Positions 48,254 to 58,393 of a stretch of 64,000 nt of DNA are shown piece by piece. The DNA lies in contig BPJO01000003.1 in the NCBI GenBank assembly GCA_026004655.1, forward strand, positions 122,254 through 186,253, read 5' to 3'. This DNA is from Phycisphaerae bacterium. Its GTDB lineage: Bacteria; Planctomycetota; Phycisphaerae; Tepidisphaerales; Tepidisphaeraceae. Position 1 is the stretch's first letter, and every line of letters begins with the position of its first letter. The notes below the pieces were generated by a model. That model made no database searches and was not told where the DNA came from. It was given only the letters and a program-made list of their open reading frames with translations. A program made the position numbers and the translations under genes.

Positions 48254-48642
48254 GGGGGCGACCGGTTTCGACTGGATGGCTACGGTGATGGTGGCATGCC
48301 CCGGAAGTCTGCTTGGCCGGGTTAACAATGCGGACAAACATTAACTGCCAATGACAATGCTGCAGTCGCTGGTCGCGTCGGTTTCGGCGCTCCGGCGTTC
48401 GTAATGGCTGCCTAATAAAAGGCGGTCTCGGGATGACGACGATGCTCGCTGATCGTCACCCGAAACAAGCGAGCTGGCTCACCAAGACAGGTCTTTCGAG
48501 GTGAGTGAGATTCAGTAGACCTGGAATCGTCCGAAGGCTGTCGGTGGCCGGCGGATGGTTCGACAACAAATCACCAGACTACGCATGTAGAAGCCATCAT
48601 TCGAGTTGTCTCAGGACGGGGGTTCAATTCCCCCCGCCTCCA
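48254..48642 (+). ncRNA. ssrA: tmRNA (SsrA), one-piece; predicted tag ANDNAAVAGRVGFGAPAFVMAA
   Basis: The 5' end GGGGGCGACCGGTTTCGAC pairs with the 3' CGCCTCC (48635-48641), including a G3:U wobble. The T-arm is GGGGG-TTCAATT-CCCCC (48618-48634) and the discriminator is A48642. The tag ORF runs from GCC 48347 to the double stop TAATAA at 48413-48418 and ends in ...VMAA. CCA is not encoded (the following bases are CTC). Confidence 0.9.
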
Positions 48643-48717
48643 CTCAGCGGGACGAGATTTTCGTCCTGCAGCAAATTGAATGGTTTTCTTGGGGTAAACT
48701 CAAGATTTCCAGAGTTC

Positions 48718-48758
48718 AAACGCACGGTTTCGAGCATGATGCTCAAAATCGTGCGTTT
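48718..48758. repeat. 41-bp nested inverted repeat: AAACGCACG...CGTGCGTTT enclosing GAGCAT-G-ATGCTC
   Basis: The outer 9-bp arms are at 48718-48726 and 48750-48758. The inner palindrome is at 48732-48744. The repeat straddles the recombinase stop codon (48743-48745). Confidence 0.6.
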
Positions 48759-50117
48759 TGCGTTGTAGTCAGCTGCAACCCAATTCTCCGCAAGGTTTTT
48801 GAAAGCTCAACCGCCTTGATCGCCAGGTCGGCGACTTCGTCGTTGTCGTGGTCGAGGCATTCGAGTTGGAGCCGAATCGCCGACTGCCGGTCTTGCATCT
48901 GGGCACGCTTGGCGGCGAACTCCTCCTGCGTGATCTCGCCCTCGATCCGCAGGTCAAGCACCGACTGCATCTTCGCGGCGAGTTGATCGTGCTGCCGGAG
49001 CAGATCGACGCGCCGCTGCTTGTTGTCGGCCTGCCCGCTCTTGGCCCGAGCCTTGATGACCTCGACGAACCATGCCTGCGTCTCGGCGTCCAGCTTGATC
49101 GTGGCGAAGAAGGCGAGGAGTTGCTGGTCGATCTGGCGCTCGTTCAGCCGGTGCTTCGGGTGTCCGTCGGTCGCGTAACCGCTGCAGCGGTAGTAGTAAT
49201 AGTCTCGCTTCGTTCCGCCGGGCGACTTCTTGATCTTGTGCTCGCCGGTGACGACCCGCCCGCAATGAGCACAGGTGATCAGTCCGCCGGCAAAGGTCAG
49301 TTGGGGCTGGTGGTAGACCTTGAAGTCCGTGCCGAATCTCTCACGCACACGCTCGAAGGTCGCCAGGTCGATCAGGGGCTCGAAAGATCCGTCATACCAG
49401 ACGCCCTGATACTGCACTTTGCCGACGTAGATCTTGTTGTGCAGGATTCGGTGCAACGTCGACTTGGTGAAGCGCGGCTGGCGGTCGGTGTAGATGATGC
49501 CTTGACGGGCCAGGGTATCGGCGAGCGTCTCCAGCGTGTGGGGACCGTACGCGAAGAGTTCGAAGATGCGCCGCACCTTCGGGGCTTGAATCGGATCATG
49601 CTCGACGATGCTGCGGCCGTTGACGCGGACGAGCCGTAGGCCGTACTGACGACCCAGCGGCAGGCCGCTTTCGATCCGACGTCTCTGGCCTGATCGAATA
49701 TCGGTCGCCTGCTGGTCCGTCTGATACGAAGCGAATACCGCTGACATCCGTCGCTGCATCCGCCCGGCGGGCGTCTCGCCGGTGGGCTGGTCGGGGAAGA
49801 ACAGAGGCACGCCGGTCGATTCGCTCAGCGCTTCCAGGTCGGCCCAGTCCCGTAGATTGCGGGCAGCGCGATCGACTTTGACGAACAGCATCCCCCGCGA
49901 GGCGGCGGTGGTTCTGCTTTACGTACGCAGTGAACTCGCGGAAGGACTGCCGCTCCTCTCGCTTGCTCGCGGTCTCGGCCAGCTTGAACAGCTTCACGAC
50001 CGACCCGCCGAGCCGCCGCGCGAACTCTCTCAGCCGCGACTCCTGATCGTCCAGCGAGAACCCCTCGTTCTTCTGCCGTTGCGAGCTGACTCTTGCCCAA
50101 GCCACGAACTGCTTCAT
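48743..50117 (-). pseudogene. Large serine recombinase, interrupted by one frameshift in a C5/G5 run (49892-49896)
   Basis: The N-terminal resolvase domain starts at ATG 50117 after AGGAG (MKQFVAWARVSSQRQKNEGFSLDDQ, with the catalytic Ser motif). It reads ...AYVKQNHRRLAG and then leaves frame. The frame of ORF 48743..49891 continues MLFVKVDRAARNLRDW..., followed by the recombinase domain, a zinc ribbon (CAHCGRVVTGE...YYYRCSG) and a coiled coil. Removing one G restores a single ~457-aa ORF. Confidence 0.8.
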
Positions 50118-50226
50118 CACGCAAGCTCCTGTTGAATCCTTTCCGCATGGAGCCACGTTTTTCGACGACTTCAATAGGCCCGACTCGGCGGTTGTTGGAA
50201 ACGGTTGGCTGGCGACAATTGGCGAT

Positions 50227-52299: not shown

Positions 52300-52631
52300 T
52301 TTTCTATTATAGAACGATCGCTTTGCCTGCGCAACACTTCGTGGTGCTTCTCCGTTCAGATGCAGTTGCGATAGTCGCGATTGCTGTCGGTTTGAGTTTA
52401 AGCTTGAGAGAATGGCTGTGGTTTAATCTGCTCCTCAACCCGTTTCAATCGACATGGCGTCAGTTCTGATTCTCGCGGTGGTGTGAGTGCGACTAGAGTG
52501 GTCGCGGCTACGAGGATTGTGCGGCAGATGCTTTTCGGACTGTCTGATACGGCAATGACTGATACAATCGACCCCCACTCGGCATGGACTGGCGGATGTC
52601 GCCACTGCCGCGTGAAGTCGAAGACAAAGGG

Positions 52632-53306
52632 ATGGTTATGAGTGACGAAACGCGTGAATCCGCCGTGCGTGAACTAAATGCAAACTGGACCGCTGCACTG
52701 AATCAGATTTTTTCTGGGAACGTGCCCGAGACCGCGCGGTGGGACGGTCCGGAAGCCATTGCGAATGTGTTGAATAAACTTGGCCAGCGGGCGAACTCTA
52801 ATCACATGTTCATCCCGACCGGCGGCGGTCTTGATGTTCGCGGGGCCGCTCCGTCGCCTGAGCCTGGATGTGTTGAACTCGACGTGGGTGCCGTTGCTGT
52901 GGTGAAGCCGAACGAGCTGGCTTTTCACGCGATTAGCGGTCCAGAGTGGTCGTACTTTCGGCTGGAATGTGATGAACTGGATGCGGTCGACGGGGATGGT
53001 AAATACGGATCCGAGGAACTGACCGAGTTGCAACCGGGCCGCTATGTCGATCGCAGTGCATGGGATGCTGGGTTCCATGGGTACGACGACAACGGCTTCG
53101 AACTGAAGCTCCCGCGATCGGCCCGCCTGGTTGTTCGGTATCTCCGCGGCGCATTCGTGCTCTTCTCGAAGGGATCGGTGTACAACCAGGTTTCGGAAAC
53201 CTATGACGGTCGGCACGCGAAGATGTCTGCTGAAGAATTTCGGCGATACATCCAACGATCCGCGAATTGTGACATCACGGAGCCAAATCGACCGCGACAC
53301 AAGTGA
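52632..53306 (+). CDS. Hypothetical acidic cytoplasmic protein, no recognisable domain
   Basis: Track ORF 52584..53306. ATG 52632 (MVMSDETRES) is the likely start. The composition is protein-like, whereas the antisense ORF 52674..53414 is Arg-rich and artefact-like. Confidence 0.45.
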   Translation: MVMSDETRESAVRELNANWTAALNQIFSGNVPETARWDGPEAIANVLNKLGQRANSNHMFIPTGGGLDVRGAAPSPEPGCVELDVGAVAVVKPNELAFHAISGPEWSYFRLECDELDAVDGDGKYGSEELTELQPGRYVDRSAWDAGFHGYDDNGFELKLPRSARLVVRYLRGAFVLFSKGSVYNQVSETYDGRHAKMSAEEFRRYIQRSANCDITEPNRPRHK

Positions 53307-53360
53307 GTCGCTCGCAGTCACGTACGCCTGCTCTGCGATGTATTTGGCGAGGAGATTTCG

Positions 53361-54011
53361 ATGGCCATTCCCGATGTTGTTGTGACGAAGATTCTTGTCG
53401 CGTGCGCGAGACATTGCTGCATCTGCCGGCGGTTCAAGCCGCTACATTTACATGTCCACCACATTGTCGAGAAGAGTGAAGGCGGAACCGACGACGAACA
53501 AAATCTGATTGCGACCTGCATGACTTGTCACTCGGACGTCCACACGCAGACCAAACTCACGCGTCGGTTTACGCCAGCCGAATTGAGGATGCACCGTGAC
53601 GCTGTCTACGCACTCGTGCGCGAAGGGAAGCTCCCCTCAGCGGAAGTCCACGGTGCGATCGAAAACGCCGCGGGAAGCGTTGCGCGGCAAATCATTGTGA
53701 CTCCGACAGCAGCCGGCTTGATGGCGGAGTCGGTTGAGATGTTGCTAGCGGCAGCGTGCATTCCTGATGATCAAGGGAACGGGCCGACACTTGCAGTGCA
53801 TTGGAAAGACCCATTCTTCGTCCGAGTCGGTGCCCGCAACTTTGGATCCGAAGATGCTCGCGTTGCGGCAAAGTACTCCAAGGCATTTCAATTGCTGCTT
53901 GACGGTGGATTCATCGAAAACGAGGCTGGCGTGCTGCACCGACTTACCCATGAAGGCTGGATCCTCGCCGATGAACTGCTCGCAGCAGGCGCAAAGGAAG
54001 CAGGTGGATGA
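53361..54011 (+). CDS. HNH endonuclease fused to an uncharacterised C-terminal domain
   Basis: 216 aa. The HNH/zinc-finger signature is CCICRRF...HVHHIVEKSEGGTDDEQNLIATCMTCHSDVH. The remaining ~140 aa show no motif I recognise. Confidence 0.7.
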   Translation: MAIPDVVVTKILVACARHCCICRRFKPLHLHVHHIVEKSEGGTDDEQNLIATCMTCHSDVHTQTKLTRRFTPAELRMHRDAVYALVREGKLPSAEVHGAIENAAGSVARQIIVTPTAAGLMAESVEMLLAAACIPDDQGNGPTLAVHWKDPFFVRVGARNFGSEDARVAAKYSKAFQLLLDGGFIENEAGVLHRLTHEGWILADELLAAGAKEAGG

Positions 54012-54152
54012 TTGGCCGGCGATTTGGCGACAGCATTCTTGGGTATGACAATTCGCGGGCAATTCATTTTCCGGATCGGTTCGTGTTGCCGATCCGCCCT
54101 CAACTAGCCCAACCGATCAGTACCGGACGATGAGCTCTGTTCGCTGCAATCC

Positions 54153-54659
54153 TCACGTTCGCTCAACGCCGAACATATGGTTTGGGTCGCTGATGAGCTT
54201 GATCTGGTGGTCCAGTAGTAAGTCATGCTTCCTTTGCTGTGTGCGCCACGACTGCAGACCATAGCCGAAGCATATCAGGCCGAACACAATGATGACGCTT
54301 GCGCCCAGAATTACGCGTGACTCCATCTGTACCAATTCTTCGAGAGATTTTCGCTGAGCACTCAGCCGACCGCTTGTTCTTACGAGTTCAAGGGGCAGAT
54401 CGGTGAGTGGCACCGATTTGATTTGCTCCAGACTCTTGCCTGCCTTAGCGGCATGCCACTTAAGTTCTTGATCAATTTCTCCGATCGCGACGTTCAGATT
54501 GGCACTGCGTTCAACCAAATCGACGATCAGATTGGCGGAAATGACCAGCGAACTTACCACCAGTGCGAGTCCAGCAAATGCGACAAATTTGTGCAAGTTG
54601 TCTGAAGGCAGATTGATATCGTTCATCCGTTCAAGTTTAGCGTCAAACGGATGACTCAA
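54153..54659 (-). CDS. Two-TM membrane protein with a central coiled-coil/helical loop
   Basis: 168 aa. The TM segments are FVAFAGLALVVSSLVISANLIV and VILGASVIIVFGLICFGYGL. The ~80-aa region between them is charged and helical. Confidence 0.5.
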   Translation of the reverse strand: MSHPFDAKLERMNDINLPSDNLHKFVAFAGLALVVSSLVISANLIVDLVERSANLNVAIGEIDQELKWHAAKAGKSLEQIKSVPLTDLPLELVRTSGRLSAQRKSLEELVQMESRVILGASVIIVFGLICFGYGLQSWRTQQRKHDLLLDHQIKLISDPNHMFGVERT

Positions 54660-54747
54660 AAAGTAGGAAGATACGGCAGGTTTCTAGTTGGGGGCTGGTA
54701 TTGCTTACCAACCGCTTAGGTGAGCCGTTCTGCGGAGTCCGGCACGC

Positions 54748-56661
54748 CTAATCCCAATCTTCGTAAAAATCGGGATCGCTCAGCAAATGTTTCAATATAG
54801 CCGCCATCCGATCTGCATCTTTAGTCTTTCGCCCATCAAGATCGCCAAGCATGGCGTTGAGGTATCTAAGGCCGCCGGACTTGCGGTAGATTCGCTTAAA
54901 AACCTTACGGAAGAGTGTTTGGGGTTCTGCTGACGCGAGGGCTAAGTCACCCGGGGGCCAGCCCGACCCCATGAACGTGTCAATGAGCGTTTTGCGCAAC
55001 TCTTTTCCCTTGTCCCAATCCCATATCCCGAACAGCTGTGTCGTCTCGTACGGCAGCGTGCTAGAACTGGTGACAGCTAGGTAAATATCCTTGAATGTTT
55101 CGATCACAACTTCGCTCAGCGGATATTTGGAATTGTAGATCGCGTAGCGAAACGCTTGAACTTGGAGCGCAAGTGTCGAAGAAGGACACTCGATCCTAGC
55201 TCTTTGAAGTACGGCGACCCACGTTCGAGCAACGGAAGCGTACCAAGGGGGACAATAGACCCTTAGCAGCATGTCAATCGAGTTGAGCACAACGGGCGGG
55301 GCTCGTTTGTAGACCGACGAAGGCAGCAGCAGCATCAGCTTCCACGAGTTTAGCCAGTTTTCCTTCTGCTTCCATGCTTGGTGAGTCAAAAGTGAGGCAA
55401 CGCTTGAGTACTCTTTGGTACCTAGCCACTCGTGCATTGTTTGGCTTTGTAAGTGTGGCAAACAAGCGGATTCCGGGACGCTTCCGTCGACATACCCCTT
55501 GAGTAAATCGCTAAATGTCAAGTCGACCAGAACAGAGTAATACGAACGCTCTTTGTGAAGCGCAAGGGTCGCTAGGCGGCGAGAAGAGTGTACAAAGCGG
55601 AGTCCATCGCAATCTCGAAGAACTTGAAGGATCACTTCATCCGTCCCCGGTGCCGACGGTGGACCTTCAGCCGACATTAGGAGGTCTAGAACCCGCTCAT
55701 CTTCTTCGAGGGCCTGACGAAGCCATGCCGGAAAATGTCCCAGCGAAAGCGGTTTGAGGTATTCAATAAGCACAGACGCCTTTTGCTGGTCCGGTAGCGG
55801 CTCCCCTAACAGTTTAGAAAAACCATCGGGGTCAGCGTGATAGGTCGCCGCCGCGATAGCCGCATTGTCAGCCGACCAGGAAGAATCCGCGATCGCCCAT
55901 CGTCGTACTTCGCTTGGAAAGCCCCTGACCAGGCAATCTCGAACGATCTTTTTGACCTTTTCGTTAGTTAAGTGGGGAACGATTGCGTGCATGGTGGATG
56001 GAATCTCGTCCTTGTCGATGCGCGATGTTAAGTCATCGAGCAAATCAATATCGAGCACTTCAAAGCCCTTCAGAATCGACTGTCGCAACAGTGTCGATTG
56101 CGTGGAGTGATCTCTAAGAATGGCGCGGACGGACTCTCGAATAGCCGATTCGCCCCTTCTCGCTGCGAGCACGCCGACAAACTTTCGTTCCGCTACCGGG
56201 TCATTTGCAAAAAGAAGGGAAGACACGTTGGGTAGCAAGCGAAGCGCCGCCGCTCGGCTGTCATCTGCTGCCAGCAAGTTACGGAAGCCATCGACTATTC
56301 CTTTCAAGAACCAGGAGGGTCTATCGCTGCTTCCAGGATCGTAAGAGTCATGCGGTAGCCGCGTGACGACCTCGGGATTGGTTTCGGTTCGTTTCGCGAC
56401 AGCGACCGCGATTCGAGAGCCGACAGTTTCTGCGACAGCAGTGAAGGCCGGTCGCTTCAACCGTTCTTCGATCAGGCGAAGACACTCCATGCTGTCGCTG
56501 TCGCTTGCCGTTTCGCTTGCTATTGTTACCGCTCTTTTGGCAACCTGCGCTTTGGCGGTTACACCATTCTGTGGCGAACGCGCCACTGACTCGACCAAAT
56601 CCATCGCGCCGACGGCGGCCTGCGGGGTACCTGCTTGGGCGCGAAAAGCGGTATCGATCAA
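54748..56661 (-). CDS. Large all-helical protein; probably the C-terminal 637 aa of a GAP1-like conflict-system protein (see 56893..57489)
   Basis: The ORF is predicted helical-repeat throughout. Its frame is open upstream to about 56760 without a good start. It is co-oriented with the 198-aa ORF 232 nt upstream, and an intervening third-frame ORF (56718..57200) bridges the two. Confidence 0.5.
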   Translation of the reverse strand: MIDTAFRAQAGTPQAAVGAMDLVESVARSPQNGVTAKAQVAKRAVTIASETASDSDSMECLRLIEERLKRPAFTAVAETVGSRIAVAVAKRTETNPEVVTRLPHDSYDPGSSDRPSWFLKGIVDGFRNLLAADDSRAAALRLLPNVSSLLFANDPVAERKFVGVLAARRGESAIRESVRAILRDHSTQSTLLRQSILKGFEVLDIDLLDDLTSRIDKDEIPSTMHAIVPHLTNEKVKKIVRDCLVRGFPSEVRRWAIADSSWSADNAAIAAATYHADPDGFSKLLGEPLPDQQKASVLIEYLKPLSLGHFPAWLRQALEEDERVLDLLMSAEGPPSAPGTDEVILQVLRDCDGLRFVHSSRRLATLALHKERSYYSVLVDLTFSDLLKGYVDGSVPESACLPHLQSQTMHEWLGTKEYSSVASLLTHQAWKQKENWLNSWKLMLLLPSSVYKRAPPVVLNSIDMLLRVYCPPWYASVARTWVAVLQRARIECPSSTLALQVQAFRYAIYNSKYPLSEVVIETFKDIYLAVTSSSTLPYETTQLFGIWDWDKGKELRKTLIDTFMGSGWPPGDLALASAEPQTLFRKVFKRIYRKSGGLRYLNAMLGDLDGRKTKDADRMAAILKHLLSDPDFYEDWD

Positions 56662-56892
56662 ATACAGACGGCGGATGGCAGTAGGATCATCGTCGAGATC
56701 AGCAAACAGTTCCGGTTCTAACCCATCGGTGACTGGGTTCGGATCAAAAATGCGAGCAGACCATCTGCTACACCCATTCGTCCGGGGTTACCGTGGATGG
56801 ATCTGCTGTACCCCAGATGAACTTGTCGCGATCGAGCTTTAAAAAACCGTGACATTACCTCCGCATCGGCGAACATCAGGTCAAAAGGCCGG

Positions 56893-57489
56893 TCATCGAG
56901 CGTTCGGGGCTGAAGACAGTGCGTACAGACGGAAAATCGCGCACGGAGAGCTGGCCACCACCGCGCACAATATTCGCCAGGCTGCGTGCTCGGCGGTCGG
57001 ATGATCGAACCACACAACAGGGCGCTTCCCGCGCGCGAAGAAGAGCAGTACGAACTGGTGGGTCTGTTCGACGGGAATCGGCGGAAACCTTTTGTTGGTT
57101 CGCCGTTCCGTCGCGTTCCACTCGATAGGGTTGAGGTACCATGCTGTGTCATCGCTGCCCTGCGGCTCACGATGGAGAGCGGCAAGGCCCTGCGGATCAT
57201 TTATCGTCCGCCAACTGTGCATCGGTACCAACAAAGTGTGAGTCAGCACGCATCCAGCTCTCGACGCGTGTACGTCAGACCAAGTTTTGGCAACAGCGAA
57301 GTGGGTGTTGCCGGGCAAGGGGTATGCCGTTAGGTAAGGCGTAAAAGTGGCGCTGCCGGTTGGAGTGCCCGACAGATCGCTCAAACGAGCAACCAACTCC
57401 GCGTCCTTTGCAGCCAAGCGCGTGCTTCCGGCAAGCTGCTCATGTCCACGTCGGTAACCATGTAGTAACTGATCGACCCTAATGTTCAA
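56893..57489 (-). CDS. GAP1-N2-like N-terminal domain protein (GTPase-associated-protein-1-related), possibly the 5' part of a frameshifted larger gene
   Basis: TTG 57489 lies 8 nt after AAGGAG. MNIRVDQLLHGYRRGHEQLAGS...LSDLSG...YLTAYPLPGNTHFAVAKTWSD...RAGCVLTHTLLVP matches the motif pattern (HGY..GH.LL, LSDLSG, YPLP, TW.D, R.GCV.THTLL) that I recall for GAP1-N2 domains. This is from memory and unverified. Confidence 0.5.
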   Translation of the reverse strand: MNIRVDQLLHGYRRGHEQLAGSTRLAAKDAELVARLSDLSGTPTGSATFTPYLTAYPLPGNTHFAVAKTWSDVHASRAGCVLTHTLLVPMHSWRTINDPQGLAALHREPQGSDDTAWYLNPIEWNATERRTNKRFPPIPVEQTHQFVLLFFARGKRPVVWFDHPTAEHAAWRILCAVVASSPCAIFRLYALSSAPNAR

Positions 57490-57652
57490 GCTATCGACTC
57501 CTTAGTCGGATTCTCCGTATGCCAACCAAGTGCCCAAGCAACGGGAATAGTGACGTCATTTGCTTTCTGACGCTTTCCAGACAGCGAGTGGATCACATAA
57601 CCGTATTCGTTAGGCTTACCGTGCATGGGTTCTTCGACAAGTACGTGACCCG

Positions 57653-58393
57653 TTGTTGATCAGCTTCTGGGAAGATGAGTTCGCGAGTTACGAGAAGCGG
57701 CTAGTCGCCGAGATCATCTCACCCATCCAGAACAAGGTGGGTCGCCTGCTGCTGGCACCGGTGATCCGCAATGTACTATGTCAAGTCACGAGCCGGATCG
57801 ACTTCCGGTTCATGATGGACCGGCGTCGCATCTTTGTCGCCAACCTCTCCAAGGGAAAACTTGGCGACGATCAGGCAAACTTTCTGGGGGCGATCCTAAT
57901 CACGCAATTCCGTTTAGCGTCCATGTCTCGTGCCAATTTATCTGAGCAAGCCCGCGTGCCCTTCAATCTGGTGGTGGACGAGTTCCACAACTTCACGACC
58001 GACTCGTTCGCGACGATTCTGGCGGAGTCCCGTAAGTACGGCCTGCATTTGACGCTTTCGCACCAGCACTTGGCTCAACTGCCGTCAGACCTCGCCGCCG
58101 CGGTTCTGGGCAACGTCGGGACGATCATCGCATTTCGCACGGGAGAGGCCGATGCCGAGCGGCTTGCGCGGGAGTTCGGCAACGATTATCGCGCCGGACA
58201 CTTTACGGATTTGGCGAACCACGAGATTCGACTCAAATCTCAGGGCGATGCCGCCGAACCCGTCTTCGTGCGGACCTTGCCGCCGCTTCCGGCCAAGCGA
58301 AAAAACGGCGACACACTCATTCGACGATCACGTGAAAAGTATGCGGCCAAACGGGCGGTGGTCGAGGACAAGATCGCGCGATGGCTGGCATGA
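57653..58393 (+). pseudogene. 5'-truncated type IV coupling protein / TraD-VirD4-like ATPase fragment
   Basis: Only the C-terminal ~246 aa are present: Walker B-like FNLVVDEFHNF, then SRKYGLHLTLSHQHLAQL and GNVGTIIAFRTG. There is no Walker A or TM region. The frame opens only at 57614. Confidence 0.65.

Follow-up and report, generated by a model that had tools for sequence, protein, structure and literature searches.

A probable deletion remnant of a GAP1-N1-type DO-GTPase system, with a GAP1 gene split by assembly errors, on a mobile island of a Phycisphaerae bacterium

A stretch of 64,000 nucleotides (nt) from the genome of a Phycisphaerae bacterium (GenBank assembly GCA_026004655.1, contig BPJO01000003.1, positions 122,254 to 186,253; hereafter the window) carries, at positions 54153-57626, a GAP1 gene that raises the question of whether such a gene can serve as a conflict system with no GTPase at its side. 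An initial annotation of the window had interpreted this locus as a possible nucleoside triphosphatase (NTPase)-less conflict system, composed of a GAP1-N2-like sensor-type protein encoded in three frames, a coupled upstream micro-open reading frame (micro-ORF), and a downstream protein with two transmembrane helices (2-TM). Our analysis leads to a different reading: it is very likely that the locus is the deletion remnant of a GAP1-N1-type DO-GTPase system and that the distribution of its GAP1 gene over three frames stems from assembly errors.

The ORF coordinates of the initial annotation were reproduced throughout. On the reverse strand, the locus contains a 198-amino acid (aa) ORF with a TTG start (57489-56893), which carries the N-terminal domain, a 160-aa "bridging" ORF (57200-56718), a 637-aa ORF (56661-54748), whose own frame is open up to 56787, a micro-ORF of 46 codons (57626-57486), whose TGA stop codon overlaps the TTG of the 198-aa ORF (TTGA), and a 168-aa ORF (54659-54153), located 88 nt 3' of the 637-aa ORF and encoding two transmembrane helices with a helical hairpin between them. 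The 198-aa ORF matches the Pfam domain GAP1-N1 (PF20012) with 109.7 bits against a cut-off of 27 (E 9.6e-32). This match spans residues 5-105, corresponding to profile positions 2-100 of 101, and was reproduced on the genome. No Pfam match to GAP1-N2 was detected in this ORF at E<=0.1. Thus, the protein was correctly assigned to the GAP1 proteins of DO-GTPase conflict systems (Kaur et al. 2020), but the type is N1 and not N2. Of the further Pfam models named in the initial annotation, GAP1-M and GAP1-C gave no match at E<=10, either in the window's 679-aa frame or in the intact homologues P0003, P0004, and P0007, and GASH gave none on the C-terminal 679 aa. Since the intact homologues lack GAP1-M and GAP1-C matches as well, the missing models say little about membership and place these proteins in a subfamily outside these models. 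A weak match of the C-terminal 679 aa to DUF5691 (E 0.017) failed to recur and was dropped. The PADLOC models returned nothing for the GAP1 gene.

A search with the long frame retrieved full-length homologues of 913-924 aa with 31-54% identity, all starting with GAP1-N1, and tblastn with three of the homologues (914-924 aa) produced a single match over 57501-54751. The encoded protein terminates at the conserved C-terminus of the family and has no fused domain. The 198-aa and 637-aa ORFs lie in one shared frame, separated by 36 codons with four stops. In the alignment to the homologues, the second frame supplies the conserved block WPALRARF..C.QPRTL.DRPFDLMFA and the third frame the block FLK.D....(D/E)EW, after which the first frame resumes. 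The coding part of the bridging ORF is restricted to about 56957-56842, and it is followed by a third-frame coding piece at about 56841-56774, which the initial annotation did not list. The frame path 1>2>3>1 amounts to three +1 shifts inside 190 nt. Hence, of the two options considered earlier, one gene of about 900 aa with two frameshifts or a split gene, the collinear homologues support the single gene, with three +1 shifts and not two.

The public hot-springs metagenome run X1, which is possibly the source of the window's DNA, contains 98% of the sampled words of 54100-57700. An independently built, k-mer-based X1 contig of 9300 nt differed from this 3601-nt region by no substitutions and by exactly three one-base gaps, which coincide with the three shift sites at 56773, 56841, and 56958, all of them homopolymers (CCC, AAAAAA, and CC, respectively, on the forward strand). 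Removal of the base at 56958 (frame 1 to 2) restores the homologue motif W..L...WPALRARF, removal of the base at 56841 (frame 2 to 3; T6 on the coding strand) restores RFLK(V/L)D, and removal of the base at 56773 (frame 3 to 1) restores (E/D)(E/Q)W..RW. Without the three bases, the gene (54748-57489, reverse strand) forms a single 912-codon ORF, whose product has 56% identity to P0003 (its aa 13-924) and also aligns to aa 1-914 of P0004 and end to end with other homologues. Restoration of collinearity at three places is beyond what random errors could do, and the shorter version is therefore the true gene. The three-frame split is hence an assembly artefact; the organism has an intact GAP1 gene of 912 codons and not the genuinely split gene considered in the initial annotation. 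Short contigs (200-470 nt) of a second run, the 2024 soil metagenome X2, were 99-100% identical to 54278-54488, 55957-56163, and 57186-57422, indicating that the same element or organism was present in the sample of a second study; these fragments reach none of the three shift sites nor the deletion junction described below and support no claim made here.

The GAP1 gene is not alone in showing this kind of error. Among 65 long orthologues (105 kb in total) shared with a genome of the same genus, 8 change frame in the genome studied here, some of them two or three times (for example C3:76399-78322, C19:46885-48227, C12:11705-13659, and C2:67467-68552). Eleven of the 13 frame changes are of the +1 type, mostly beside homopolymers. 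Gene decay in real bacterial pseudogenes leans towards deletions, and this 11:2 excess of insertions therefore points to sequencing or polishing errors. A frame break near 49900 also interrupts the large serine recombinase gene beside the tmRNA gene of the window (48630-50120, reverse strand), where an assembly error like those in GAP1 is the probable cause; a second break is likely near 48800. Genes of this genome that look split or frameshifted should accordingly be regarded as possible assembly artefacts.

What would be expected next to such a GAP1 gene? We collected 45 related loci, 9 from reference genomes and 36 from metagenomes. In relatives with long flanks, Pfam matches revealed a constant gene order upstream of and including GAP1: a Metallophos-GAAD effector, that is, a calcineurin-type phosphoesterase with a C-terminal GAAD (PF00149 and PF19976), GASH (PF19994), DO-GTPase2 (PF19993), DO-GTPase1 (PF19975), and GAP1. 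This five-gene arrangement was found in Phycisphaerae, Gemmataceae, Nannocystaceae, and many metagenome contigs, with Phycisphaerae, Tepidisphaerales, and Gemmataceae assemblies among the relatives. DO-GTPase1 lies immediately 5' of GAP1 in all 42 informative loci; in the other three (L008, L010, and L029) the sequence begins inside or at GAP1. Given this adjacency, a deletion remnant is a better reading of the locus than an NTPase-less conflict system. In sections 27-28 of their survey, Kaur, Burroughs, Iyer and Aravind (2020, PMC7159879) describe the GAP1-N1 subsystem as consisting of two DO-GTPases, GASH, GAP1, a mostly calcineurin-superfamily effector, and a GAAD adaptor, and the same source gives proteobacteria, bacteroidetes, and spirochaetes as the main groups from which N1 systems are known. 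The close relatives of the locus possess this described set, including a pair of DO-GTPases of which one is Cys-rich in its N-terminal part, and the locus itself shares with such systems a GAP1-N1 domain in a protein of about 910 aa directly 3' of DO-GTPase1 sequence with a stop/start overlap. Unlike them, it keeps only GAP1 and about 44 codons of DO-GTPase1, both GTPases, GASH, and the effector having been deleted. With GAP1-N2 systems it shares the general GAP1 concept, in which middle and C-terminal parts follow an N-terminal domain co-evolving with the GTPases. However, an FNIII-repeat component defines N2 systems according to section 27 of the same survey, whereas the relatives of the locus have GASH in place of this component, and the locus gave no N2 match. 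In one relative, L009, in the complete genome of Bradyrhizobium sp. TZ2 (chromosome CP170752.1, 6317117-6335645), the whole operon appears broken up into many short ORFs, with none of the genes for the phosphoesterase, GASH, the two GTPases, and GAP1 in one piece, and it may be a genuinely decayed copy.

The frame of the micro-ORF yielded a weak Pfam match to the last 28 positions of DO-GTPase1 (244-271 of 271; E 0.033) and aligns to the DO-GTPase1 C-termini of 28 related loci, the best with 76% identity (E 3e-19) and the next with 69% (E 2e-15). These best matches have the motif GYV(I/V)H.L....D.T.PVAWAL in common with the micro-ORF frame. Compared with the closest relative, the DO-GTPase1 homology starts at GKPNE, at window position 57620, so that 57486-57620 (reverse strand) holds the last about 44 codons and the stop codon of DO-GTPase1, while the first two codons of the micro-ORF, beginning with the ATG at 57626, come from the antisense strand of the coupling-protein gene. 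What had been taken for a coupled micro-ORF is, judging from these alignments, no leader peptide but an accidental chimeric frame, in which two codons of antisense coupling-protein DNA precede the 3' stump of DO-GTPase1. An NTGA stop/start overlap is also present at the DO-GTPase1/GAP1 junction of 5 relatives, with 16 of the 45 loci measured, and L034 has a TTGA overlap at the same 23-nt distance to the conserved HGY codon. The TTGA overlap goes back to the ancestral operon, whose stop/start junction it preserves.

On the other side of the stump lies a 5'-truncated gene for a type IV coupling protein (57617-58393, forward strand). It matches residues about 230-490 of its full-length relatives, and at 57653-58393 Pfam recognised TraG-D_C and TrwB_AAD_bind in their C-terminal parts only. 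These relatives, one of them a paralogue on contig C9 of this genome, have open frames of 453-495 aa. The homology begins at 57617 (YRAWVLRQV), corresponding to residue 189-234 of the full-length relatives, and the window has a stop codon four codons 5' of this point. A complete TraD/VirD4/TrwB-like ATPase with the N-terminal Walker A half is thus not present at 57617-58393, and the missing 5' half was found nowhere else in the genome, except in the C9 paralogue. This paralogue (G000:C9:99647-101125, locus L054) is apparently intact, with a 495-aa open frame and 43% identity, and suggests a second conjugative or mobilisable element. The coupling-protein- and DO-GTPase1-derived sequences meet head to head at 57617-57620, with an overlap of at most 4 nt, in agreement with the initial annotation, which had placed the cassette right against the point where the coupling-protein gene is truncated. 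The 9300-nt X1 contig spans this junction without a joint or loose end. Across the genome assembly (3.45 Mb in 31 contigs, 93% complete), the stump is the sole DO-GTPase1 similarity, DO-GTPase2 and Metallophos-GAAD gave no match, and tblastn with three GASH proteins of relatives found no GASH. The earlier statement that a GTPase or other NTPase partner is lacking is therefore right as far as intact genes go; the remains of a GTPase gene, its C-terminal stump, are present as the micro-ORF.

We propose that a five-gene GAP1-N1 system was once cargo on an island adjacent to the transfer-messenger RNA (tmRNA) gene, together with a serine recombinase, a Replic_Relax protein, a primase, and a coupling protein. 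A single deletion, estimated from gene sizes in relatives at 5 kb or more and ending in the junction at 57617-57620, would have taken out the genes for DO-GTPase2, GASH, and the effector entirely, together with about 290 codons from the start of DO-GTPase1 and about 230 from that of the divergent coupling-protein gene. GAP1 and the DO-GTPase1 stump of about 44 codons would have been left over, the latter gaining an ATG by chance from antisense coupling-protein DNA. Because the GTPases, GASH, and the effector are gone, the GAP1 module is most probably inactive, and GAP1 would most likely be a non-functional leftover of a recent deletion.

The 2-TM protein encoded 3' of GAP1 had been regarded as a component of the system. 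Kaur et al. (2020, PMC7159879) report 2-TM SLATT proteins, which act as pore-forming effectors, in some GAP1-N1 systems, and the 168-aa ORF resembles them in being small, in having two predicted transmembrane helices, and in adjoining GAP1. Unlike SLATT effectors, its helices lie about 70 residues apart with a helical hairpin between them. No SLATT match (E<=0.1) or other significant Pfam match was obtained, although a very divergent SLATT protein could escape detection by sequence alone, and there was no PADLOC match of note. Among 5.8 billion clusters the ORF has no homologue but itself, an Atlas search returned generic helical proteins only, and tblastn found it in none of the 45 related GAP1 loci, where the genes 3' of GAP1 are mutually unrelated and encode no 2-TM proteins. 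The 168-aa ORF is thus an orphan neighbour and not a conserved partner of GAP1. Convergent with it, at 52584-54011 on the forward strand, lie a 240-aa acidic ORF and an ORF with an HNH domain (PF01844, E 1.6e-10). Both are missing from all 45 GAP1 loci and represent separate island cargo.

The tmRNA gene next to the island lies at 48254-48643 and is followed by the serine recombinase gene; further along, the island encodes a Replic_Relax protein, whose gene overlaps the coupling-protein fragment, and a DnaG-type primase. A GAP1-N1 gene was found in none of 60 relatives of the same genus, family, or class, which implies horizontal acquisition of the locus. The remnant thus sits on a horizontally acquired, now defective mobile island.

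Several observations weigh against the reading of the locus as a deletion remnant with an error-split gene. Should the window's DNA stem from X1, which it may, both assemblies would represent one sample and would not be independent of each other. The X1 contig has a word depth of only about 4x. A contig proves that one form is present but not that another is absent, and a frameshifted variant could exist beside the intact form. No breaks occur in the genes for RpoB, RpoC, and the large tRNA synthetases, so the errors are patchy. Components missing from the 31 contigs, at 93% completeness, could sit on unbinned ones. The undeleted arrangement was not found among the 60 relatives, and a single deletion is the simplest history, not an observed one. 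The first of these points bear on whether the three +1 insertions might be real mutations, with GAP1 a true pseudogene decaying after partner loss and the intact X1 form a coexisting variant. Such a history would suit an island that has decayed, with coupling-protein and DO-GTPase1 genes both truncated, and rare variants are dropped from contigs, the more relevant at so low a depth. We nevertheless consider it unlikely, given three indels against zero substitutions in 3.6 kb, all of them +1, in homopolymers, and within 190 nt, and given the same +1 bias in housekeeping orthologues genome-wide, opposite to the deletion-prone decay of real bacterial pseudogenes.

An assembly fault at the junction itself has an even smaller probability in our view. 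Here, 57617-57620 would be a chimera or a minority deletion variant, and most cells would carry the full five-gene system and a complete coupling-protein gene. The metagenome-style assembly with its incomplete set of contigs leaves room for this, as does the frequent heterogeneity and poor binning of mobile islands, but the independent k-mer-based contig crosses the junction uninterrupted, and the missing genes left no trace on any of the 31 contigs. The original idea of a functional minimal GTPase-independent module, in which GAP1 would act alone or form a sensor-effector pair with the 2-TM protein under a translationally coupled leader peptide, appears comparably remote. It would draw on the intactness of GAP1 in the X1 form, on the SLATT proteins of some GAP1-N1 systems, and on the position of the 2-TM ORF on the same strand shortly 3' of GAP1. 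Set against this are the invariable adjacency of DO-GTPase1 in the informative loci, the absence of the 2-TM ORF from all related loci and its lack of homologues and of a SLATT match, and the composition of the presumed leader, a gene stump plus antisense coupling-protein DNA. In addition, a promoter scan of 54-58 kb detected no sigma-70-like site; this is a weak negative, as host promoter types were not covered. We give a similarly slim chance to an orphan GAP1 that was kept, after the loss of its partners, for a role of its own or with its new neighbours, the 2-TM ORF and the HNH cassette. If true, it would represent a GTPase-independent use of the GAP1 sensor scaffold.

With respect to the GAP1 protein itself, an AlphaFold model of the family (P0003 and five homologues; mean predicted local distance difference test score 72.8) shows, with confidence, a body of all-helical repeats at residues about 300-920 and a poorly modelled N-terminal third. 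Foldseek searches with this model retrieved HEAT/ARM solenoids (karyopherins, CAND1, and PP2A-A) as best matches, with template modelling (TM) scores of 0.11-0.21 and about 11% identity. GAP1 shares the all-helical repeats of the modelled body with these alpha-solenoids, including karyopherin-beta, but TM-scores in this range denote fold-class resemblance only and no sign of homology. A Protein Data Bank (PDB) sequence search with the GAP1 family profile found nothing below E 0.2. We do not draw a function from the resemblance to karyopherin/Ran, the Foldseek matches being generic. In Kaur et al. (2020, PMC7159879), GAP1 is proposed as a non-enzymatic scaffold that links sensing, the GTPase switch, and the effector; the all-helical model fits this proposal and adds no proof. 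In P0003, P0004, P0007, and the protein encoded at L002:8004-10763 (about 920 aa), Pfam covers only the first about 100 residues (GAP1-N1), and the other about 800 form a well-conserved predicted alpha-solenoid with the C-terminus ...EEWD, for which there is no Pfam model. At L038, L043 (SXGS01400666.1), and L044 (SXGT01443897.1), the latter two being metagenome contigs, the match is confined to the first about 200-320 residues of GAP1 though the contigs run on, and these may be GAP1-N1 proteins with another middle and C-terminal architecture.

Our analysis identifies the locus as an ordinary remnant of a known system and not as a new GTPase-free one. It also serves as a caution, as three one-base errors and one deletion together gave the locus the look of an "NTPase-less" defence system with a split gene and a coupled leader peptide. 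Since no experimental tests of these GAP1 systems were found in the literature searched, the intact GAP1-N1 loci of relatives, such as L002 and L011, are better targets for experiments than the remnant.

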